Program-made: the position numbers and the translations under genes
Shown here: piece by piece, positions 18,107 through 35,693 of the stretch
Layout: each line of letters opens with the position of its first letter
How positions within the stretch are numbered: position 1 is the first letter of the stretch
NCBI GenBank assembly: GCA_963783835.1
Contig: CAWAOX010000011.1
Location: 1,859-65,858 of the forward strand
DNA: 64,000 nt
Reading direction: 5' to 3'
Source of the DNA: an uncultured Actinomycetota bacterium
Lineage (GTDB): Bacteria > Actinomycetota > Thermoleophilia > RBG-16-64-13
The notes under the pieces: generated by a model
What the model was told of the DNA's origin: nothing
Seen by the model: only the letters and a program-made list of their open reading frames with translations
The model's database searches: none

Positions 18107-19393
18107 ATGAAACCGGTTCTGCAGTTGGCTCTTGACTTCGTCGACCTCCCGCGCGCGCTTCTGGTCGCGGAAGAAGCCGTGGCAGGAGGGGCCGACTGGC
18201 TCGAAGCCGGGACGCCGTTGATCAAGAGCGAGGGCCTCCAGGCGGTCCGCGAACTGAGGGCCCGCTGGCCGGAACACGTCGTGGTGGCCGATATGAAGAC
18301 CATGGACGCCGGACGGGCGGAGGTGGAATACGCGGCCAAGGCCGGGGCCAAAGTGGTGGGCGTGCTCGGCGCGGCCTCGGACGCCACCATCCAGGAGTGC
18401 GTGGAAGCGGCCCGCAACTATGGGGCCGAGATCATCGTGGACATGGTCCAGGTCGAGGACGTCGTCGCCCGCGCCAAAGCGGCAGAGCAGATGGGCGCGA
18501 GCTACATCGGGATCCACATCGCCATCGACGAGCAGATGCAGGGCAAGACCCCCTGGGACACACTCCGGCAGGTAGCGCAGGCCGTTTCTATCCCGATCGC
18601 GGTCGCCGGGGGCATCAACTCCGAGACGGCCCCGCTGGCGATCGAAGCAGGCGCCTCGGTCGTCATCGTCGGCGGCGCCATAACGAAGGCCGCCGATGCC
18701 ACCGCGGCGACCCGGACCATCAAGCAGGCCATGGAGACGCTCGTCCCTGCCGAATCGGAGTTCTTTGTGCGCGCCACCGGTCCGGACGTGCGCGACAAGC
18801 TGGCGCGGGTCTCAGCGGCGAACGTCTCCGACGCCCTCCACCGCACCGGCGATATCCCGGGGCTGCGGCCGCTGGCCCCCGGCTCCAAGTTGGTCGGTCC
18901 GGCGCTTACCGTCCGCACCTATCCCGGCGACTGGGCGAAACCGGTCGAGGCCATCGATCACGCGCAGCCCGGCGATGTGATCGTCATCGACGCGGGTGGC
19001 GTCCCTCCCGCCATCTGGGGAGAACTGGCGACGAACTCTGCGATACAGCGGGGCGTCGCCGGCGTGGTTATCTTCGGCGGGGCTCGAGACACCGGCGATA
19101 TCCGGGCCCTCGGCTTCCCGCTCTTCTGCTCGCTCGTGACCCCCACGGCCGGTGAGCCGAAGGGTTTCGGCGAGATCGGGATCCCGATACGGATCTCCGG
19201 AGTCCGGGTATCTCCTGGAGACTGGATCATCGGTGACGACGACGGCGTCTGCGTCATCCCTCGGGAGAAGGCCGTGGAATATACGAACAGGGCGATGGAC
19301 GTGCTCGAACGTGAGAACCGGCTCCGCAAGGAGATACAGGCGGGCAGCACGCTCAGCCAGGTCGGATATCTGCTGCGGTGGGAGAAACGGTGA
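18107..19393 (+). CDS. bifunctional 3-hexulose-6-phosphate synthase-like (OMPDC fold) / RraA-family aldolase-decarboxylase-like protein
   Basis: Residues 1-210 are HPS/KGPDC-like (LQLALDFVDL, VVADMKTMDAG, IAVAGGI). Residues 225-428 are RraA-like (GELATNSAIQRGVAGVVIFGGARD, DDDGVCVIP). It is a single frame of 428 aa. Confidence 0.85.
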   Translation: MKPVLQLALDFVDLPRALLVAEEAVAGGADWLEAGTPLIKSEGLQAVRELRARWPEHVVVADMKTMDAGRAEVEYAAKAGAKVVGVLGAASDATIQECVEAARNYGAEIIVDMVQVEDVVARAKAAEQMGASYIGIHIAIDEQMQGKTPWDTLRQVAQAVSIPIAVAGGINSETAPLAIEAGASVVIVGGAITKAADATAATRTIKQAMETLVPAESEFFVRATGPDVRDKLARVSAANVSDALHRTGDIPGLRPLAPGSKLVGPALTVRTYPGDWAKPVEAIDHAQPGDVIVIDAGGVPPAIWGELATNSAIQRGVAGVVIFGGARDTGDIRALGFPLFCSLVTPTAGEPKGFGEIGIPIRISGVRVSPGDWIIGDDDGVCVIPREKAVEYTNRAMDVLERENRLRKEIQAGSTLSQVGYLLRWEKR

Positions 19394-22177: not shown

Positions 22178-22187
22178 CTCCCGTGCC

Positions 22188-23042
22188 TCACGCCCCCACG
22201 GTGATGTTGTCGATCAGCCTCGTCTTGCCGAACCAGACGGCTATGGCGATCAGGCAGGGACCGGCAAGGACGTCGAGCGAGGTCAGGTCGTTTGAATCCA
22301 CGATCTCCACGTAGTCGATCTTCGCCAGGTCCGCCTCGGCGAGCACCGCGCAGATCTCGCCCTTGAGCCGCCCGGCGTCACGCTCCCCGTTCTCGACAAG
22401 CGTCAGCGCCGCCGACAGAGCGCGCTAGAGCACGGGGGCCTGTGCCCGTTCCTCCGCAGAGAGCCGGGCGTTCCGCGAGCTGAGGGCGAGGCCGTCGGGC
22501 TCGCGGACGGTGGCACAAGGCACTATCACCACGTGCATGTCCAGATCCCTCACCATCTTCTTGATCACGGCGAGCTGCTGAGCGTCCTTCTCGCCGAAGT
22601 ACGCCCGGTCCGGCCCACAGATGTTGAAGAGCTTGGCAACGACCGTGCAAACGCCCCGGAAGTGGTCGGGCCGCGCAGCTCCGCACAATCCCTGGGTAAG
22701 CCCTTCCACGTCCACCCATGTGGAGAAGCCCTTCGGGTACATCTCCCTCACCGCCGGGCCGAAGACGAGGTCGGCGCCGGCGGAACCCGCCAACTGCAGG
22801 TCCCGCGCGAGATCCCGGGGATAGATATCCAGGTCCTCACCCGCGCCGAACTGCGTGGGGTTGACGAAGATCGACACGGCGACAAGGTCGTTCTCGGCGC
22901 GCGCCTTGCGGATCAGGGAGAGGTGCCCCTCATGGAGGGATCCCATGGTTGGGACAAGCCCGATGGTCCCGCCGCGACTCCGAGCCTCTGCGACCACCGA
23001 CTTGACGCCGGCGATCGTCTCGATGCACGAGATGCCGGCCAT
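22188..23042 (-). pseudogene. panC: pantoate--beta-alanine ligase interrupted by an in-frame TAG at 22425..22427
   Basis: Track ORF 22425..23042 stops after ...[18 protein letters not shown]. The same frame then continues without a shift as RALSAALTLVENGERDAGRLKGEICAVLAEADLAKIDYVEIVDSNDLTSLDVLAGPCLIAIAVWFGKTRLIDNITVGA, ending at TGA 22188..22190. That is the normal PanC C-terminal domain. Confidence 0.88.
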
Positions 23043-24060: not shown

Positions 24061-25365
24061 CTAGCGGGAGTTCTTCCTCATCTGGTCGAGGAACTCCGTG
24101 TTGGACTTGGTCTCCTTGAGCTTCTGGATGAGCAGTTCGATGGCGGCGTTCGGATCAAGGGCGTGGAGCACCGACCGCAACTTCCAGACCATCTTGGCCT
24201 CGGCGGCATCCATAAGGAGCTCTTCCTTCCTGGTGCCGGAATTCTCGATATCGATGGCCGGGAAGATCCGCTTGTTCGCCAGTTGACGGGTCAGCCGGAC
24301 CTCCCAGTTGCCGGTACCCTTGAACTCCTCGAAAATGACCTCGTCCATGCGCGACCCGGTCTCGACGAGCGCCGTGGCAAGGATGGTGAGCGAGCCCCCC
24401 TCCTCGATGTTCCGGGCCGCCCCGAAGAACTTCTTGGGCGGATAGAGCGCGGTCGAGTCGACCCCGCCTGAGAGGATACGGCCGCTGGCGGGCGCCTGCA
24501 GGTTGTAGGCCCGGGCCATCCTGGTGATGGAGTCGAGGAGCACCACGACGTCCCTGCCCACTTCAACCAGGCGCTTGACCCGCTCCAGCACCAGCTCGGT
24601 GACCTGCACGTGGTTCTCGCCGGGCATGTCGAAGGTGGAACTGACCACCTCGCCCGTCACCGTGCGCTCCATGTCGGTGACCTCTTCCGGCCGCTCGTCG
24701 ACGAGCAGCACCAGCAGGTGCACCTCGGGGTTGTTGGTCGCGATCGCATGGGCGAGGTCTTTGAGGATGGTGGTCTTCCCTGCCTTGGGGGGAGATACGA
24801 TCAGACCGCGCTGGCCCTTGCCCAGAGGGCTCATGATGTCCATGACCCGGGCCGAGAGACGGTCGGGGGTGGTCTCGAGCCTCAGGCGCTCGTCGGGGAA
24901 GAGAGGCGTCAGCGAGTCGAACGTGGGGCGATGGCGCGCTTGCTCGGGATCCATGCCGTTGACGGTCTGGATCTTGAGGAGGGCATGGTACTTCTCGTTG
25001 TCACGCGGAGTCCGCACCTGGCCGTTGATCTCGTCGCCCCGGCGTAGCTTGAAGCGCCTTATCTGAGATAGGGACACGTAGATGTCGGAGTCGGACTGGG
25101 TATAGCCCTGAGTGCGCAGGAAGCCGTAGCCGTCCGGGAGGATGTCGAGCAGCCCGGTGCGGAAATGCAGGCCCCTGTCCTGGGACTGCTCGTTCAGGAT
25201 CTTCATGATGAGATCCTGCTTCGAGTACTTGCGGAAGTTCTTGATACCAAGCTCGCCTGCGACCATGTGCAGATCGGACAGAAGCTTGGGCTCTATCTCG
25301 CTCAGGGGGGTCGCCTTTGCCGTCGTGCGGCTTTCTTGTTCGTCGTTCTGGTTCATTCGCAACAA
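24061..25365 (-). CDS. rho: transcription termination factor Rho
   Basis: GYGFLR (RNA-binding domain), Walker [10 protein letters not shown] and the typical C-terminus are present. Confidence 0.97.
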
Positions 25366-25399: not shown

Positions 25400-26419
25400 T
25401 CATCTGATCCCGAGAGCCACCATCGGACCCCCGTTCTCGGTACGATGCAACGTCCGTATCGTGCGGATGGCGTGGCAGTTGGAGCACATCACCAGCGTCT
25501 CGGTCTGCACTCCGTCCGGCCGCACGTCGATGCCCCGAAGGAACCTGCCGCCGGTGACCGCTGTGGCCGCGAACAGGACACCATCGCCGGCCATATCAGC
25601 CGTGGTCAGGGGCGTCTCGACGTCGACGAGACCGGTCGCTCGCACCTGCTCCACCTGATGCCTGGAGACCGGCCAGAAGCGTGCGCGTATCTCGCCGCCG
25701 AGGCAACGCAGGGCCGCCGCGGCGATCACCCCTTCGACCGCGCCGCCTATCCCGATGGTCATGTGTACGCCGCTGTTCCGGGAGGCAGCCGCTATGCCGG
25801 CCGAGATGTCACCGTCGGCTATCAGCCTGAGGCGAGCACCCGCGGCTCGTATCTGAGCGGTCAACTCTTCGTGCCGGGGCCTGTCGAGGACGACCACCAC
25901 GAGCTCGCTCGGCGAGCGGCCGAGGGCGGCCGCCACGCGATGGATGTTCTCGCCCACGGACGCGTCGATGTCGACGGCGGCCGCGGCCTGGCCGGCGACG
26001 ATGACCTTCTGCATGTACATCTCTGGTACCCGCATCAGGCTTCTCTCGGGCCCGGCGGCTATCATCGCCAGCGCGCCCTCGGCTCCGCCGGCCAGAGCGT
26101 TCAGGGCTTCGAGGGGCTGCACGACCGCATCCCACACCTGGGTGAGCCCTTCGGCCTCCCGGGCCTCGCCGACCCAAGCTCCTGGGTCGCCGCCCAGCTC
26201 GTCGCCCGGCTGCAGGACGGCCGGCGACCGGCCGCTGCCCCGGCTCGCGACCACCCTGACCTTCACGGGACCCTGCGCAAGCGCGTCCGCCATGGCCATG
26301 CGGGCCGCCAACTCACCGGCCAGCCCATCGGCCCGGCCGATCCATTCCGCCGCCCCCAGAGCGGCCGCCTCGGACACGATCGCAAAACGAGCGCATATGC
26401 AGCGACCCTCAGCGTTCAC
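25400..26419 (-). CDS. GlpX-like (class II fructose-1,6-bisphosphatase family) protein with divergent N-terminal catalytic motifs
   Basis: VLDRPRH, LIADGDISAG and GIGGAVEGV are conserved. The DP[IL][DE]GT position reads QPLEAL and the GEGE loop reads SRGS. GTG start overlaps the upstream gene by 11 nt. Confidence 0.82.
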   Translation of the reverse strand: MNAEGRCICARFAIVSEAAALGAAEWIGRADGLAGELAARMAMADALAQGPVKVRVVASRGSGRSPAVLQPGDELGGDPGAWVGEAREAEGLTQVWDAVVQPLEALNALAGGAEGALAMIAAGPERSLMRVPEMYMQKVIVAGQAAAAVDIDASVGENIHRVAAALGRSPSELVVVVLDRPRHEELTAQIRAAGARLRLIADGDISAGIAAASRNSGVHMTIGIGGAVEGVIAAAALRCLGGEIRARFWPVSRHQVEQVRATGLVDVETPLTTADMAGDGVLFAATAVTGGRFLRGIDVRPDGVQTETLVMCSNCHAIRTIRTLHRTENGGPMVALGIR

Positions 26420-27386
26420 CAGCCGACACCTCAGTCTGTTCGATGACTCCGTACAGTGCGTCCACGACCGTCCCGACCGTGTCGTCGATGCTCATGTTGT
26501 CGACCACCAGCGTGCCCTCCGTGGCCGCCCGCTCGAGTATGAACCCTTGGATCTTCCTGATATCGGCGAACCCCCCCAGATATCGGGCCAGCACCCTCCT
26601 GCCGGAGGTCTGCTGTTCGCGCACCAGGAAATGGCTCCTATGAAGCTCGGGGTCGGTCACCGTCACGACCAGGGGTAGCAACAGTACGTCCGACATGCGT
26701 TCCTCGGCCGCTTCCGGAGCCAGCATCCCCGGCACCATGTGTACCCCTTCGACCACCAGACTCGTCCGCTCCTTGATCGCCCTGTCGATGATGGCCCGCA
26801 CACCCACGGCGACCATCTCGACCTGCTCCATGAACCCCAGCAGACCGGCGTCCAGCCCCGGGCCCACCGGCATCCTCACCGCCATCCCCGCCTCATACGA
26901 CGAGTAGTGGATGGAGGGCATGAGCGTCTTCGAGAAGAACGCCCTCATCGCCTCCCGAATGGAATCGGTGGAGATGATCCTCACGATCCCCAGCCTCTCC
27001 GCGACCTGGGCTGCAATGGTGCTCTTGCCCACTCCCGTCGAGCCGCCGATGAGCACGATGACCGGCCGGTCCTCGGCCGCCATCCGGTTCCAGATCCGGT
27101 ACCGCTGCAGATAGCGGTGCTCCCCACTGTCGGCAAGCACCTTCTCCACCAGAGTGCGGAGCTCGTCCACGCGGACCTCGCGCTCCGCGGCCTGCATCAA
27201 CTGCCACTCCACGTCCATCGCTACCACGTATGCCCGCTGCGGCGAAAGTCCGGTAGAGGTCAGAGCCGTCGCGAGAAGCCCCTTGGAGAACGGGACCTTG
27301 TGCCCCTCGCTCACCAACTGGATGGGAGGCCCCTCGGGCTTCCCGGTCGCCTCGGGCGACTCTTCTGTCCCCATGGGACCGCTCAA
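26409..27386 (-). CDS. 2-phosphoglycerate kinase-like protein (archaeal 2PGK family, COG2074-type)
   Basis: P-loop VLIGGSTGVGKSTIA, followed by IISTDSIREAMR and HYSSYEA. The N-terminal region of about 100 aa resembles an ATP-cone. Confidence 0.78.
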   Translation of the reverse strand: MSGPMGTEESPEATGKPEGPPIQLVSEGHKVPFSKGLLATALTSTGLSPQRAYVVAMDVEWQLMQAAEREVRVDELRTLVEKVLADSGEHRYLQRYRIWNRMAAEDRPVIVLIGGSTGVGKSTIAAQVAERLGIVRIISTDSIREAMRAFFSKTLMPSIHYSSYEAGMAVRMPVGPGLDAGLLGFMEQVEMVAVGVRAIIDRAIKERTSLVVEGVHMVPGMLAPEAAEERMSDVLLLPLVVTVTDPELHRSHFLVREQQTSGRRVLARYLGGFADIRKIQGFILERAATEGTLVVDNMSIDDTVGTVVDALYGVIEQTEVSAGER

Positions 27387-27390
27387 CTCC

Positions 27391-28791
27391 TCACGACCGC
27401 TGCTCGAACCTCTCTCTCGCCCTCGCGGCTAAGCCCAGGGCCAGGGCCTCCAAGCCGCTGCCCTTATCCGGTCCGCTTTCCGGAGAGACTTCCACCGGCA
27501 CGTTGTCCATGAAAATCACCGGGAGACCCCGTGCCGCCGCCTCTTCGGCCACCACGTCGATGGCTGCCGCCTTGATCTCGGTCACCACCGCGTCGACCCT
27601 GCCCATCGCCTCGCTCTGAAGGTCCTGCCTGAGTGCCACGCGATCAGCGAGATGGGTGGAAAACAACTCGACCCGGCATCCCCACCGCTCCTCCAGATGC
27701 CTGCGCAAGACCGCTTTCTGCACCTCCGGCGCCGTGGAGAAACAGGCCACCGTTCGGCCCCGCACGTCTTCGACGGGCTGCGGGCGAAACACGACGGGCA
27801 GCACCGGCATTCCCGGCCGTACCCTCTCCACTGCGTCCCTGACCATCTGGACCTTCTCCCCCGATGCCAGCGGTTCCTCGGCCATCGTCAACACCACCGC
27901 GTCGCTTATGAGCAGCCGATAGGCTCCCAGGTAGCCGGCGATGTCGTCTACCGGCTGCTGCGCCCCCGCCACCAGCAGGCGGACGTCGCTCGCGACCGGC
28001 GGCTGAGCGGCCCCGCTCCCTTCCAGCACGATCAACTCCGGCTGCAGGCTGTTCGCCAGCCGCACTCCATCAGCGACATTGGTCGCGAACGGCTGTCCCG
28101 CCATGCCACCCCCGCAGCGCCGGCACCCGACGGTGACCACTCCGCTGAGGACCGCATCCTCGAAGTGATCGGAGGCCGCGTGACGCCCCTGCCGGCTCCA
28201 GGCAAGCAGGTCCTCGGCTTTCAAGCGCCGCTTGGTCCCATCGATGACCTCGGGCCGCGCCGGTCCACCCCGACCCATAGCCACCACCACGATCCCCGGG
28301 CGCCCCTCCCGCGCAGGGACGGCCGCTTGAAGGACCCGGGCCACGTACCCGCAGATGGCGGTCTTCCCCACTCGCTTGCCGGTGCCGATGATGGCCAACG
28401 AGGGAGTCGCGCAAAGACGTTCGGAAGTCGCGGGGCTGAAGTGGAAATCGGGACCTACGTAGCCCACCTGGCGCGCCAGACTCTTGCTCGCAAGGCGAAA
28501 ACGTTCTGTATATCCTAGCACCGGTTCGTCGCTGAGGTCAACGACCACTTGCGGCCGGTACCGGTCGATGGCCGTGTCGAGCCCACGCGACCAGTCGTCG
28601 TCGAAGATCACCGGCAGCCCATACAGCTTCTCCGCCCCGTCTTCCAGGCCGTCCCGCCGTATCTTCTCGGTGCCTCCGAGGAACAGGGCCGCCCGGAACT
28701 CGAACCGGTCGGCCGCCTGCTGCAGCGCGTCGACGACAACCGGAGGGTAATGCTCGCCGTCGATCAGGACTACGGCGGAGAGCTTCATCAT
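27391..28791 (-). CDS. cpgS: cyclic 2,3-diphosphoglycerate synthetase-like protein
   Basis: About 466 aa starting MMKLSAVVLIDGEHYPPVV, with the P-loop AIIGTGKRVGKTA and overall cDPG synthetase (COG2403-type) layout. The ATG at 28791 overlaps the upstream stop. The first 75 codons of the track ORF are out-of-gene. Confidence 0.78.
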   Translation of the reverse strand: MMKLSAVVLIDGEHYPPVVVDALQQAADRFEFRAALFLGGTEKIRRDGLEDGAEKLYGLPVIFDDDWSRGLDTAIDRYRPQVVVDLSDEPVLGYTERFRLASKSLARQVGYVGPDFHFSPATSERLCATPSLAIIGTGKRVGKTAICGYVARVLQAAVPAREGRPGIVVVAMGRGGPARPEVIDGTKRRLKAEDLLAWSRQGRHAASDHFEDAVLSGVVTVGCRRCGGGMAGQPFATNVADGVRLANSLQPELIVLEGSGAAQPPVASDVRLLVAGAQQPVDDIAGYLGAYRLLISDAVVLTMAEEPLASGEKVQMVRDAVERVRPGMPVLPVVFRPQPVEDVRGRTVACFSTAPEVQKAVLRRHLEERWGCRVELFSTHLADRVALRQDLQSEAMGRVDAVVTEIKAAAIDVVAEEAAARGLPVIFMDNVPVEVSPESGPDKGSGLEALALGLAARARERFEQRS

Positions 28792-29543
28792 CCGGAAGCG
28801 CGATCGAATTCCACGATGCCCTCGCCGCCGTGGAATGGATAGCGCCGCGACACCGTCACGTGCTCGCCCTTGATCTCGACGACGTTGTAGCAGGGCTTCG
28901 TGTCGCCCCGTAGCCGGAGCGTGGCGACGGTACCGGCGTTGACGACATACATGTTCTCCAAACGCCAGGCGTACGGCACGTGCTTGTGGCCCGAGAGTAC
29001 GAGGTCCACTCCGCACTCCGCGAGGACCTCCAGGACGTCACCGGCGTCGTTCACGATGTTGCGTTCCCGTCCCGTGCCGGGGATCGGCAGCAGGTGGTGG
29101 TGGAGCATGAAGATCTTGACGTCGTCAGGACTGTCCATGAACGCTTCCCGGATCCACTGGTACCGGTGCCGGCCGATGCGGCCGTAGTCGAGGTCCGGCT
29201 CGGTGGAGTCAACGCCGAGCAGCGTCACCCCTTGCTTTCGTACGATCATCTGGCGGGTGGCGAACAGCCGCTCGAAATGCGCGTAGCCCACGTTGCGGCT
29301 GTCATGGTTGCCGGGTACCACGATGACGTCCGGGCACGTCAGCCGGTCGAGATACTCGCGCGCCTCCCGAAACTCCTGGCGGTACCCCATATTGGTCAGG
29401 TCGCCGGTGACGGCGACGATGTCGGGACCGAGGTCGTTGACCTCGACCAGCGTCCGGTCCAGCAGGTTGGGCACAAAGTACTGCGAGCCCAGATGCAGGT
29501 CGGACAGGTGAGCGATAACGCACGAGCGGGTCTGATCTCCCAT
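28788..29543 (-). CDS. calcineurin-like metallophosphoesterase
   Basis: DLHLG, GDLTN, GNHD, HHHL and GHKH motifs are present. The ATG at 29543 lies 5 nt after the thrC stop. Confidence 0.85.
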   Translation of the reverse strand: MGDQTRSCVIAHLSDLHLGSQYFVPNLLDRTLVEVNDLGPDIVAVTGDLTNMGYRQEFREAREYLDRLTCPDVIVVPGNHDSRNVGYAHFERLFATRQMIVRKQGVTLLGVDSTEPDLDYGRIGRHRYQWIREAFMDSPDDVKIFMLHHHLLPIPGTGRERNIVNDAGDVLEVLAECGVDLVLSGHKHVPYAWRLENMYVVNAGTVATLRLRGDTKPCYNVVEIKGEHVTVSRRYPFHGGEGIVEFDRASG

Positions 29544-29548
29544 CGTGA

Positions 29549-30625
29549 CTACTCCGATGTAGCTATGATCTCCTCGACTGCGGCAAGATCGGCCGGGCAA
29601 TGGATGATCGGGCGGGACTGGTCGATGGCGGTCTGCGGATCTTTGAGGCCGTGGCCGGTCAGCACGCACACCAGGGTGTCGCCCTTCGGGAGCCCGTTGG
29701 AACCATATTTGAGAAGTCCGGCGACGCTGGCCGCGGAGGCCGGCTCGCAGAACACGCCCTCTTTCTGGGCAAGCAGCCGCTGGGCCGCCAGGATCTCCTC
29801 GTCGGTCACATCGCGAATGACGCCGCCCGAGTCGTTGGCCGCGGCGAGGGCTTCGTCGCCCCGCGCCGGGTTGCCGATGCGGATGGCCGTGGCGATGGTC
29901 TCCGGCTTCTCCACGACGTGGCCGCACACCAGGGGGTTCGCACCTTCCGCCTGGAATCCCCAGACCACAGGCAGTCTACCCGCGAGCCCCCGGTCCTTGT
30001 ATTCGCGGAACCCCTTCCAGTACGAGGTGATGTTGCCGGCGTTGCCGACGGGGATGGACAGCATCGCGGGCGCGTCGCCCAGGGTGTCGACGATCTCGAA
30101 CGCCGCCGTCTTCTGCCCTTCGATGCGATAGGGGTTGAGCGAGTTGACGAGCGTGATCCGCTGCCGTTGGGAGAGTTCTTTGACGTACTCGAGCGCCAGG
30201 TCGAAGTTGCCCTCGATGGCGATAGCGACTGCGCCGTGCATCAGGGCCTGCGAGAGCTTGCCCATGGCGATCTTGCCCTCGGGGATAAGCACCACGCAGC
30301 GCAGCCCGGCTCGCGCGGCGTAGGCAGCCGCGGATGCGGAGGTATTGCCGGTGGAGGCGCAGATGACCGCGGTCGCCTCTTCTTCCAGGGCCTTGGTGAT
30401 GGCCATCGTCATCCCCCGGTCTTTGAACGAGCCGGTGGGATTGGCCGCCTCATATTTGAGGAACACTTCGCAGCCGAGCTCGCCGCTGAGCCACCTGGCA
30501 GGGACCAGCGGCGTGCTTCCCTCTCCCAGCGTCGCCGGGACGGTATCCGGCTTGAGCGGGAGGAACTCCCGATAGCGCTCGATAACGCCGAACGGCGCCG
30601 CCGCGAGAGCGCCGGCGGCTCTCAC
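29549..30625 (-). CDS. thrC: threonine synthase
   Basis: PLP site NPTGSFKDRG. The start is set to GTG at 30625, which overlaps the hom stop (GTGA); the track start at 30661 is a TTG inside hom. Confidence 0.94.
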   Translation of the reverse strand: MRAAGALAAAPFGVIERYREFLPLKPDTVPATLGEGSTPLVPARWLSGELGCEVFLKYEAANPTGSFKDRGMTMAITKALEEEATAVICASTGNTSASAAAYAARAGLRCVVLIPEGKIAMGKLSQALMHGAVAIAIEGNFDLALEYVKELSQRQRITLVNSLNPYRIEGQKTAAFEIVDTLGDAPAMLSIPVGNAGNITSYWKGFREYKDRGLAGRLPVVWGFQAEGANPLVCGHVVEKPETIATAIRIGNPARGDEALAAANDSGGVIRDVTDEEILAAQRLLAQKEGVFCEPASAASVAGLLKYGSNGLPKGDTLVCVLTGHGLKDPQTAIDQSRPIIHCPADLAAVEEIIATSE

Positions 30626-31899
30626 AGCACCCTCAGACTCATAGGCTCGCTTCTGCAGCAACTCAGCGCATTCGCCTCCCGGATGGCAGCGAAGAAGTTC
30701 TTTTCTTTGGTCGGGTGCGTGATCAACACCAACTCCGCCTCCGCGCCTCTGCCCTTCTGGATCATGCTCGCTATGGAGACCCCATGTCCGCCGAGCACCG
30801 AAGCGATGCGGGCCAACACTCCCGATACGTCCTCCACGTTCATCTTAATAAAGAACGCGGACTCCATCTCATCGGCCGGGTAGAACCCGATCTCCCGATA
30901 GCACGAGCAACTCTGCAGGAAGCCTACGTCCTTCGTGTTGGCGATCGACACGATGTCGCTGACCACCGCGGTCGCGGTCGGCACCCCTCCCGCGCCCGGA
31001 CCCATCAGCATGATCTCCCCGATCTCGTCTCCCCGAAGGAACACCGCGTTGTTGGAGCCGTTTATGGCGGCCAGCGGATGATCCACCGGCACAAGGGCGG
31101 GGAACACACGCACGCTGACTCTGCCTTCGATGAGCCGGGCCGCCCCGATGAGCTTGACGGCGAAACCAAGATCCTTGGCGTACCGGACGTCGTCCAGACT
31201 CACATTCTCTATACCCTCGTAGGCAACATCTGCAAGCCGTACCCGAGAGTGGAAGGCGATCGACCCGAGGATGGCCATCTTGGCGGCGGCGTCGGCCCCG
31301 CCGACGTCGGCAGTCGGGTCGGCCTCGGCGTAACCCAGTTCTTGCGCCTTGGCGAGGATGTCGGCGTAGTCGCCCTCGTTGTTGTGCATCCGGGTGAGGA
31401 TGTAGTTGGTGGTGCCGTTGACGATGCCATAGACAGTCTTGAGACCCGCCGCGATCATGCTCTCGCGCATGACCTTGATGATCGGGATGGCGCCGGCGAC
31501 CGCGGCCTCGAAGCGCAGATGCCGCTGCTCCTCTCGGGCCAGGGTGAAGAGGGCCTCGCCTCGGGTGGCAAGCAATTGTTTGTTGGCGGTCACCACGTTC
31601 TTGCCCTTGCGCATAGCCGCGTCGAGGAAGTCGAACGCCGCGCCCGTCCCGCCGATCACCTCGACCACGATATCAATGGAGGGGTCGTCCGCGATCTCAT
31701 TGAAGTGGGTGGTGAACAGGCCGTCAGGGAGGTCGCCCGGCTTCTTACTGGGATCGATCTCGAGCACCCTGGCCACCTGGAGGTCTACCCCGGTGCCCTC
31801 CAGGATCTGGTCGTGCTCTTTCTGGATCAGCCGGTATACGCTCGAACCGATCGTGCCGAATCCCAGCAGACCTATCCGCACGACCCTATCCCGGCTCAT
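30622..31899 (-). CDS. hom: homoserine dehydrogenase
   Basis: Rossmann motif IGLLGFGTIGSSV, a central catalytic domain and a C-terminal ACT-like domain. The ATG overlaps the lysA stop (ATGA). Confidence 0.95.
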   Translation of the reverse strand: MSRDRVVRIGLLGFGTIGSSVYRLIQKEHDQILEGTGVDLQVARVLEIDPSKKPGDLPDGLFTTHFNEIADDPSIDIVVEVIGGTGAAFDFLDAAMRKGKNVVTANKQLLATRGEALFTLAREEQRHLRFEAAVAGAIPIIKVMRESMIAAGLKTVYGIVNGTTNYILTRMHNNEGDYADILAKAQELGYAEADPTADVGGADAAAKMAILGSIAFHSRVRLADVAYEGIENVSLDDVRYAKDLGFAVKLIGAARLIEGRVSVRVFPALVPVDHPLAAINGSNNAVFLRGDEIGEIMLMGPGAGGVPTATAVVSDIVSIANTKDVGFLQSCSCYREIGFYPADEMESAFFIKMNVEDVSGVLARIASVLGGHGVSIASMIQKGRGAEAELVLITHPTKEKNFFAAIREANALSCCRSEPMSLRVL

Positions 31900-33237
31900 G
31901 CTCTCCCTCGACTTTCACTATCGTGCAGCGAACGGTGTTTGACGACCAGGTCAGCGTACGTCTCGCGCTCGACGATCACCCGGGCCCGCCCATCGCGGAC
32001 CAGGATGACCGCGGGGCGCGGGCTGCCGTTGTAGTTCGACGACATGGCGAAGCAATACGCACCGGTGGCCGGCATCACGAGAATATCTCCCGGCTCTGGC
32101 CGGGCAAGGATGGCGTCCCGGATGAGGATGTCTCCGCTCTCGCAATGCTTACCGGCCACCGTGACTCTGGTATCGGCAGCAACGCCAGCTTTGTTAGCCA
32201 GCATACCCTCGTAGAGCGCGTCGTACAGCATGGGACGGATATTGTCGCTCATGCCGCCATCGACGCTCACGTATGTGCGCACCCCTGGGATCTCCTTGAT
32301 GGTGCCCACGGTGTACACCGTGATGCCCGCCTTACCCACGATGGAGCGCCCCGGTTCGATGAGCACCCGCGGCATCGCCAGTCCCCGGGCCGCCATCTCT
32401 TCCCTCACGCCCTCCACCTTGACGGCCGCGTAGTCGCCGATGGACGACGGGGTGTCTTCCTCGGTGTACCGGATGCCCAGTCCGCCTCCGACGTTCAGAT
32501 AGCGGCACTCGAACCCCAGGCTCTCGTTCGCCTGCGCGATGAGGCCCACCAGGATGTCGATGGCCTTGCGAAAGCCCTCCAGTTCAAAGATCTGGCTGCC
32601 AATGTGGGCGTGCAGACCGATGAGTTCGAGGTGAGGGGCAGCCATCGCCCGCCGGATCGCCTCCATCGCCACCCCATCCTCCAAGCCGAATCCGAACTTG
32701 GAGTCGACCTGCCCTGTCTGGATGTAGGAATGGGTGTGGGCCTCGATGCCCGGCGTTATGCGTAGAAGCACCTTCTGGCGCCCACTTCGCGCTGCCACCA
32801 GTTCCTCCAGGAGACCCAGTTCCTGGAAGCTGTCGACCACCACGAAGCCAACGCCGCCCGAGAGGGCGTACTCGAGCTCTTCCCGGGTCTTGTTGTTGCC
32901 GTGGAAGAAGATCTTCTCGGGCGGGAAGCCGGCCACCTTGGCCACGTGATACTCGCCGCCCGAGGACACGTCGATCGACAGGCCCTCCTCGAGCACCAGT
33001 TGGGCTATCGCTACGGCCGAAAGCGCCTTGCTGGCGTAGATGATCTCGAAATCCTGGGTATGTTGCCCGAAGGCGGCCATGTAACGGCGTGCACTGATCG
33101 CGGACGGATCTCTCCTCGTAGACGAGCAGCGGCGTGCCGAACGTGGCGGCTAATTCGACGACGTCGCAGCCGTCGATCTCGAGATGCCCAGCGGCGTTGT
33201 GGGACGCGGTGATGGGATAGACGAGCGTGTGGGTCAA
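31896..33237 (-). pseudogene. lysA: diaminopimelate decarboxylase with a frameshift near 33109..33117 (pseudogene or indel error)
   Basis: The N-terminus MTHTLVYPITASHNAAGHLEIDGCDVVELAATFGTPLLVYEE lies in the frame of ORF 32584..33237. The protein continues in the frame of ORF 31896..33080 as DPSAISARRYMAAFGQHTQDFEIIYASKALS. The remainder is a complete LysA (GGGLGIRY, CESGD). Confidence 0.88.
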
Positions 33238-35617: not shown

Positions 35618-35693
35618 TGGAGCGGAGTACGGGGGTCGAACCCGCGACATCCAGCTTGGGAAGCTGGCACTCTACCAACTGAGTTAACTCCGC
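35618..35693 (-). tRNA. tRNA-Gly (anticodon CCC), CCA end encoded
   Basis: GCGGAGTTAACTCAGTTGGTAGAGTGCCAGCTTCCCAAGCTGGATGTCGCGGGTTCGACCCCCGTACTCCGCTCCA folds as a cloverleaf by hand. It has a 7-bp acceptor stem, anticodon loop TTCCCAA, T-loop TTCGACC and discriminator U73. Confidence 0.96.

Follow-up and report, generated by a model that had tools for sequence, protein, structure and literature searches.

A 64,000-nucleotide stretch of the genome of an uncultured Actinomycetota bacterium (contig CAWAOX010000011.1 of assembly GCA_963783835.1), referred to here as the window, encodes on its minus strand a homologue of the cyclic 2,3-diphosphoglycerate (cDPG) synthetase of methanogens, CpgS, followed by a 2-phosphoglycerate kinase (2PGK)-like protein and preceded by a metallophosphoesterase (MPE). 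The presence of a bacterial cDPG module, as predicted from these genes, is well supported by homology and synteny. We think the balance tilts slightly towards a three-gene module, MPE-CpgS-2PGK, set within a housekeeping array, in which the MPE is the hydrolase and to which the adjacent gene for a divergent class II fructose-1,6-bisphosphatase (FBPase, GlpX) does not belong. The four genes are the following.

28788..29543, minus strand: MPE, 251 aa, of the CpdA/Rv0805/GpdQ-like branch (Pfam Metallophos, 4.5e-19)
27391..28791, minus strand: CpgS homologue (cDPG synthetase), 466 aa (PDB 8ORK/8ORU, E 6e-114; Pfam PF27272, CpgS_N)
26409..27386, minus strand: 2PGK-like protein, 325 aa, combining an N-terminal ATP-cone with a P-loop kinase domain (PRK04220, 8.4e-86; ATP-cone, 5e-10)
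25400..26419, minus strand: protein with a divergent class II FBPase (GlpX) fold, 339 aa (Pfam FBPase_glpX, 4e-88)

An earlier note on this DNA, made from the letters alone, had described these as four minus-strand genes packed together with overlaps or a 4-nt gap, and direct reading of the open reading frames (ORFs) and their junctions agrees. The TGA stop codon of the MPE gene overlaps the ATG of cpgS (ggATGAtgaag), and 4 nt (GGAG) separate the cpgS stop from the TTG start of the 2PGK-like gene at 27386, for which an alternative ATG lies four codons downstream at 27374. The GTG start of the GlpX-like gene overlaps the 3' end of the 2PGK-like gene by 11 nt. All of the motifs quoted in the note are present in the translations (DLHLG, GDLTN, GNHD and GHKH in the MPE; AIIGTGKRVGKTA in CpgS; VLIGGSTGVGKSTIA, ISTDSIREAMR and SSYEA in the 2PGK-like protein), and its family assignments hold with the values listed above.

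The synthetase and kinase genes

The product of gene 27391-28791 aligns with the crystallised cDPG synthetase of Methanothermus fervidus over 427 positions, with its residues 7-441 matched to chain residues 8-440; the similarity is thus full-length and includes the unique N-terminal domain. It resembles the M. fervidus enzyme (44.5% identity) nearly as closely as it does homologues in Coriobacteriia (approximately 50%). A local scan of this ORF with Pfam and NCBIfam profiles returned zero matches, and it was the search of PDB sequences that gave its identity; in a large protein collection the window CpgS and its relatives belong to Pfam PF27272, the family name CpgS_N being taken from gene tables. 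The Walker A motif is GTGKRVGKT (residues 136-144). In the structure paper on the M. fervidus enzyme, 2,3-diphosphoglycerate (2,3-DPG) is held by K145, R146 and the E45/K46 pair of the partner subunit, T150 and D208 are the Mg2+ residues, and K149, E305, T353, E404 and K406 are the ATP residues. All 11 of these are identical in the window protein, where their counterparts are E42, K43, K139, R140, K143, T144, D208, E305, T353, E405 and K407. The ratio of nonsynonymous to synonymous substitution rates (dN/dS), computed for each of the four genes from the window against four relatives, is 0.13-0.19 for cpgS and indicates purifying selection.

The best families for the 2PGK-like protein are two models of 2-phosphoglycerate kinase, PRK04220 and PRK12337 (3e-85), both matched at full length; the PRK04220 match covers profile positions 10-295 of 306. 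The ATP-cone spans residues 27-100, the P-loop GGSTGVGKST is present, and the gene is under purifying selection (dN/dS 0.12-0.19). Profile and sequence searches therefore support the assignment of 27391-28791 as a cDPG synthetase homologue and of 26409-27386 as a 2PGK-like kinase, the two families to which the earlier note had assigned these P-loop ORFs.

Distribution and gene order

Relatives of CpgS are numerous, with at least 8000 homologue clusters at E < 1e-10 and at least 512 candidate stretches in a collection holding one genome per species. The best 80 of these stretches form our synteny sample; three are archaeal (Methanosphaera twice and Methanolliviera), one is from Anaerolineae, and most of the others are Actinomycetota, with the labels Thermoleophilia, Gaiellales, Rubrobacter, Coriobacteriia (including Slackia) and Candidatus Aquicultor. 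A few others have the label Eubacteriales or are unidentified. Many of the bacterial homologues are already named, as 'cyclic 2,3-diphosphoglycerate synthetase' (JGI) or '2,3-diphosphoglycerate synthetase [Thermoleophilia bacterium]' (NCBI). Given these numbers, the bacterial origin of 76 of the best 80 and the existing annotations, the term 'archaeal-type' that was first applied to the window genes is misleading.

The nine array proteins of the window were used as tblastn queries against the 80 loci, and the junctions were then analysed. Of the 79 loci whose upstream DNA is long enough to tell, 70 have the MPE gene directly before cpgS, in most cases with an overlap of 4-14 nt. Directly after cpgS comes 2PGK in 70 of 76 loci, among them that of the archaeon Methanolliviera. 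The nine loci lacking the MPE-cpgS pair are the three archaeal ones, the Anaerolineae one, and five bacterial ones with an S49 peptidase (SppA) gene in its place; those lacking an adjacent 2PGK are from three Rubrobacter metagenome-assembled genomes (MAGs), two Methanosphaera and one Anaerolineae. The earlier note had proposed a survey of bacterial neighbourhoods for both the phosphoesterase and the GlpX-like gene. The coupling of the phosphoesterase to cpgS across Actinomycetota is borne out, with the order phosphoesterase-cpgS-2PGK kept, and that of the GlpX-like gene, found in only 26 of the 80 loci, is not.

In bacterial loci rho is a constant downstream anchor of the module. The gene upstream of the MPE varies; the clade of the window has thrC there, some relatives have hom, Coriobacteriia and Aquicultor have SppA (after thrB), and another Thermoleophilia-like group has coaX. 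Two MPEs taken as starting points, 63-64% identical to that of the window, both lie in the order coaX-MPE-CpgS_N-2PGK-TAL_FSA-rho. The MPE-cpgS junction is kept while its upstream neighbour changes, and the trio MPE-cpgS-2PGK therefore behaves as a unit, although the wider region is also syntenic.

Some individual loci depart from this arrangement. In the Rubrobacter MAGs L037, L053 and L057 the order is MPE-cpgS-GlpX-like-rho, with no adjacent 2PGK. The Anaerolineae MAG L063 (5962-9017) has cpgS without a flanking MPE or 2PGK, and the gene directly after it is of the iPGM family (Metalloenzyme + iPGM_N) and the gene before it encodes a xylose-isomerase-like TIM barrel; this is a different phosphoglycerate-linked context. 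The 2PGK gene appears split or frameshifted in L001 (7400-8381) and L072 (7325-8354), and these breaks are probably assembly errors rather than signs of pseudogenes.

The phosphoesterase

The MPE gene is the most constrained of the four (dN/dS 0.04-0.08). The five metal-binding motifs of its product (D15xH17, G47D48, G78N79H80D81, H148-150 and G185H186xH188) are invariant in 71 orthologues, across which 68 positions, including seven Arg, do not vary. The family also has its own invariant basic blocks, RNVG..HF, PGTGRER and R.RG, with no counterpart in GpdQ; these would fit a small polyanionic substrate but are no proof of one. The maximum Kyte-Doolittle mean in a 19-residue window is 1.16, and no transmembrane segment is predicted.

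An activity converting cDPG to 2,3-DPG has been described in Methanothermobacter thermautotrophicus (Sastry et al. 1992); according to a review (PMC1224877), it is membrane-bound and is inhibited by K+ and inorganic phosphate (Pi). It has been read as mobilising a store of carbon and phosphate. The literature searched names no gene for this hydrolase, which agrees with the earlier note, to which no gene assigned to the opening of cDPG and dephosphorylation of 2,3-DPG was known. The MPE is a good but unproven candidate for hydrolysis of cDPG or 2,3-DPG.

It could instead be an ordinary cyclic-nucleotide or glycerophosphodiester phosphodiesterase of the Icc/CpdA type that stands beside cpgS because the housekeeping array is old and rearranges slowly. 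JGI names its orthologues Icc or CpdA, its nearest solved structures are GpdQ (5e-10) and Rv0805 (9e-8), synteny extends to the flanking genes lysA, hom, rho, S58 and panC, and SppA rather than MPE is directly upstream in the five bacterial cpgS loci mentioned above. However, the protein scores 46.2 bits against the CpdA model PRK11148 and 45.7 bits against SpdA, for which the cut-offs are 225 and 400, and the invariant basic motifs set it apart from GpdQ. The overlap with cpgS has moreover been kept in most of the 70 loci and in several Actinomycetota classes, through four changes of the upstream neighbour. We consider an ordinary phosphodiesterase unlikely for these reasons.

A role against phages was also looked at, as the top NCBIfam name for the MPE is that of an anti-phage phosphoesterase, and was rejected; the match is partial, with 81 bits against a cut-off of 420, and PADLOC gave weak generic matches and nothing more.

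A predicted cycle of synthesis and breakdown

We propose that the 2PGK-like kinase converts 2-phosphoglycerate to 2,3-DPG, as its family assignment and its adjacency to cpgS suggest, and that CpgS consumes ATP in cyclising 2,3-DPG to cDPG, a cyclic pyrophosphate, as would be expected from the full-length homology and the intact set of ligand residues. In the structure paper the archaeal CpgS acts by a two-step phosphoryl transfer. The soluble dimetal MPE, translationally coupled to cpgS, would most likely hydrolyse cDPG or 2,3-DPG, the conserved coupling of the genes being the guide here, and would return carbon and phosphate to lower glycolysis and gluconeogenesis. The ATP-cone of the 2PGK-like protein is a likely control point that senses adenylates. 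The genes for synthesis and breakdown of a reserve compound would thus share one operon. The host is assumed not to be a hyperthermophile, its nearest relatives being environmental MAGs, and cDPG is therefore more likely to be a reserve of phosphate, energy and carbon here, or a minor anionic solute, than a thermoprotectant.

A number of points weigh against this scheme. [quoted passage not shown] The enzymatic roles given to the bacterial members come from homology and gene context. The 2PGK-like protein falls below the cut-offs of both of its families, with 288.1 bits against 343 for PRK04220 and 286.8 against 603 for PRK12337. In the Anaerolineae locus and in all three archaeal ones cpgS has no MPE beside it. 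The archaeal hydrolase is membrane-bound whereas the MPE lacks any hydrophobic segment, so that these enzymes could be analogous and need not be homologous. The whole lysA to rho region is syntenic, and part of the conservation of MPE-cpgS could reflect inherited gene order and not function. A synthetase and a hydrolase expressed together would also amount to a futile cycle unless there were regulation.

Several of the same observations would suit an alternative in which the CpgS/2PGK pair builds no cDPG pool and supplies 2,3-DPG, for instance as primer for a cofactor-dependent phosphoglycerate mutase or as a regulator, or else acts on some other diphosphorylated acid, cDPG being transient at most. 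The hosts are assumed not to be hyperthermophiles, cDPG in bacteria is unreported both in the cDPG literature and in the Rubrobacter solute survey, the 2PGK-like scores are below the equivalog cut-offs, the Anaerolineae cpgS adjoins an iPGM-family gene, and there are Rubrobacter loci with no adjacent 2PGK. Yet every residue that contacts 2,3-DPG in the archaeal enzyme is identical in the window CpgS, and an ATP-consuming cyclase maintained under purifying selection makes little sense if 2,3-DPG alone is needed. We regard the absence of a cDPG pool as quite unlikely, and retain the three-gene cDPG module as the preferred reading.

The GlpX-like gene

The fourth gene is distributed differently from the other three. 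It occurs in Thermoleophilia/Gaiellales-like loci and in Rubrobacter, and in 38 loci a gene for a 217-aa transaldolase/FSA (TAL_FSA) protein takes its place between 2PGK and rho. In Bacillus subtilis the rho locus has the order fbaA-ywjH(tal)...glpX-rho with read-through transcription into rho, and the paper describing it names no cpgS or 2PGK there; the presence of tal or glpX beside rho is therefore an old gene order that is independent of the cDPG genes.

The Pfam FBPase_glpX match covers profile positions 5-307 of 307, and the score against TIGR00330 (199.5 bits) is below the cut-off of 259.3. The catalytic set of class II FBPases, in E. coli numbering, comprises Asp33, Glu57, Asp85, Glu88, Thr90, Tyr119, Lys164, Arg166, Asp188 and Glu213 (PMC5892879), of which Asp33, Glu57, Asp85, Glu88, Asp188 and Glu213 are metal ligands, and Thr-to-Ala variants of the Mycobacterium tuberculosis (Thr84) and Francisella enzymes are completely inactive. 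Three concordant alignments, to Synechocystis 3ROJ and M. tuberculosis 6AYY with HMMER and to E. coli GlpX with MAFFT, place Glu, Arg, Gln, Glu, Leu, Tyr, Arg, Arg, Asp and Glu at these ten positions in the window protein. The catalytic Thr, the nucleophile, has thus been lost (T90L), and two of the six metal ligands have been replaced non-conservatively (E57R and D85Q), while the 6-phosphate triad Tyr119/Arg164/Arg166, the DGD motif, Glu88 and Glu213 are kept. Thr90 is absent from 23 of 24 aligned orthologues; the protein of L018 retains Thr90, Glu57 and Asp85, and this suggests an ordinary FBPase as the ancestral protein at this position. The gene is nonetheless under purifying selection (dN/dS 0.09-0.21). 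The Rubrobacter proteins of L037, L053 and L057, which also lack Thr90, have about 11 extra residues inserted into the loop that bears Glu57.

The GlpX-like protein is probably a constrained descendant of the rho-linked glpX that is non-catalytic or re-purposed. The gene would descend from the ancient rho neighbour glpX, with loss of the catalytic Thr and of some of the metal site in this lineage, and its product probably binds a sugar phosphate or glycerate phosphate without canonical hydrolysis. A role as 2,3-DPG phosphatase is unlikely because of the loss of Thr90 and of the two metal ligands. A four-gene cycle, with the MPE responsible for opening the cyclic pyrophosphate and the GlpX-like protein acting as the 2,3-DPG phosphatase, much as the earlier note proposed for turnover, draws on the co-directional genes with their overlapping or near-abutting junctions, the retained triad and DGD motif, the purifying selection and the position of the gene directly after cpgS in Rubrobacter loci, but is very unlikely given the small share of loci with the gene, the transaldolase in so many others, the glpX-rho adjacency of B. 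subtilis at a locus for which no cDPG gene is named, and the residues lost from a site where a change of Thr to Ala abolishes activity.

The surrounding array

The module sits in a longer array with the order lysA-hom-thrC-MPE-cpgS-2PGK-glpX-rho-S58-panC, all co-directional on the minus strand, so that its placement within a hom-thrC...rho array, as first noted, is correct by ORFs and synteny. The host is a high-GC soil actinobacterium, and the closest relatives of the window are uncultured environmental Actinomycetota MAGs with 84-99% protein identity across the array. The flanking genes, of which the first three are assigned from the ORF, its translation, tblastn synteny and the Pfam labels of the same array in locus L081, are as follows.

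31896-33080, minus strand: lysA
30622-31899, minus strand: hom
29549-30661, minus strand: thrC
24061..25365, minus strand: rho transcription termination factor, 34 nt past the GlpX-like gene (ORF and synteny)

Equally tight packing occurs across the whole array, and spacing therefore does not delimit a four-gene operon; the four genes belong to the longer co-directional array. The end of thrC is 5 nt from the start of the MPE gene, the pairs lysA/hom, hom/thrC and S58/panC overlap, and rho and S58 are separated by 29 nt. A promoter and terminator scan found no terminator-like sites on the minus strand from lysA to panC. Counts of promoter-like and terminator-like sites equal the shuffled background, and such scans are uninformative as to operon boundaries. 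Rfam and tRNA scans for leaders and riboswitches found only a tRNA-Gly at 35618-35693.

When the thrC ORF is taken from its TTG at 30661, it shares 40 nt (30622-30661) with the end of hom, and the true start of thrC is probably further downstream. No homoserine kinase gene, either a GHMP ThrB or an ApgM-like one, was found across the 64-kb window. In related lineages the thrB or ApgM-like gene is placed between thrC/hom and the module. A replacement of the missing thrB by the module or its 2PGK-like kinase was considered and rejected, because a GHMP thrB coexists with the module in 27 loci and an ApgM-like gene in six; its sole support was a 17-bit P-loop match to NF040667.

The panC gene (pantoate-beta-alanine ligase; 22185-23042, minus strand) has an in-frame TAG at 22425-22427, after residue 205, where the L081 orthologue has Ala, and the frame beyond the TAG keeps a good C-terminal match to that orthologue; the TAG reflects a nonsense mutation or else a wrong base in the assembly. 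On the plus strand at 18107-19393 there is a gene for a 428-aa fusion of an OMPdecase/HUMPS-family domain and an RraA-like aldolase domain, followed by genes for a methyltransferase and a class III aminotransferase, and the same trio is found near the array in L081. The segment 41468-48548 (plus strand) encodes an SSF symporter, a PHP-domain protein and then a 978-aa Cache-PAS-CBS-DUF294 sensor protein (a putative nucleotidyltransferase), and a gene of the GPR1/FUN34/YaaH type (acetate-channel-like) lies between these genes on the opposite strand.

Implications

Since bacterial cpgS genes already carry that name in databases, the core of the finding is not new. What is new is that three genes keep a conserved architecture, that they do so in bacteria which are probably not thermophiles, and that one of them encodes a candidate hydrolase; the module as a whole is a variant of a known pathway. 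In the literature cDPG is treated as a methanogen-specific extremolyte, and it is under development as a biotechnological stabiliser. Nothing relevant came of literature searches on cDPG synthetase in combination with Actinobacteria, Thermoleophilia, Coriobacteriia or Rubrobacter. A module conserved across Actinomycetota would, if our reading is true, alter expectations of where cDPG occurs in nature and of its purpose, with a reserve of phosphate and energy favoured over heat protection, and would possibly point to cultured genera in which to seek it. The enzyme that degrades cDPG has been without a gene since the activity was described in 1992, and the MPE is a soluble and easily expressed candidate. 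The Thr-less GlpX is a separate, smaller lead on a housekeeping phosphatase turning into a probable pseudoenzyme.

A bolder version of these proposals can be stated, which we think possible but doubtful. The MPE would be the first gene for hydrolysis of cDPG or 2,3-DPG, and MPE-CpgS-2PGK would form a regulated reserve cycle, ancestral to and vertically inherited in several Actinomycetota classes (Thermoleophilia, Gaiellales, Rubrobacter, Coriobacteriia including Slackia, and Aquicultor). In that case cDPG would occur widely as a metabolite of bacteria, rather than as a thermoprotectant confined to methanogens, and the Thr-less GlpX would be a non-catalytic sensor of sugar phosphates or phosphoglycerates.

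Comparison with known systems

The closest known system is the archaeal cDPG pathway as found in M. fervidus. It shares both enzyme families with the window, together with identical Walker A, 2,3-DPG, Mg and ATP contacts and the same layout of ATP-cone and P-loop in 2PGK. The window genes differ in being in an actinobacterium, in being joined with an MPE, and in lying between threonine-pathway genes and rho; the archaeal loci examined have no adjacent MPE, and those of Methanosphaera have no adjacent 2PGK either. The cDPG hydrolase of M. thermautotrophicus catalyses the step proposed for the MPE and has given rise to the same idea of a carbon and phosphate store, but it is a membrane-bound enzyme inhibited by K+ and Pi whereas the window MPE is predicted to be soluble.

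Among the class III phosphodiesterase-type MPEs, GpdQ of Enterobacter aerogenes, Rv0805 and CpdA/Icc have all five of the metal-binding motifs and include the best PDB matches, but the similarity is only at E 5e-10 to 1e-7, and the PGTGRER, RNVG..HF and R.RG blocks are features of the window family. The class II FBPases (E. coli 3D1R, M. tuberculosis 6AYY and Synechocystis 3ROJ) share with the GlpX-like protein the full-length fold, the 6-phosphate triad, DGD, Glu88 and Glu213, and a place next to rho as in B. subtilis; they differ at Thr90, Glu57 and Asp85, replaced in the window protein by Leu, Arg and Gln, and the window protein is below the TIGR00330 cut-off.

Operons that pair the synthesis of a reserve with its breakdown include ppk-ppx, the glycogen gene cluster and cphA-cphB. 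The module resembles these in bringing together the synthetase and putative hydrolase of one phosphate- or energy-rich compound, a likeness of analogy and not of homology.

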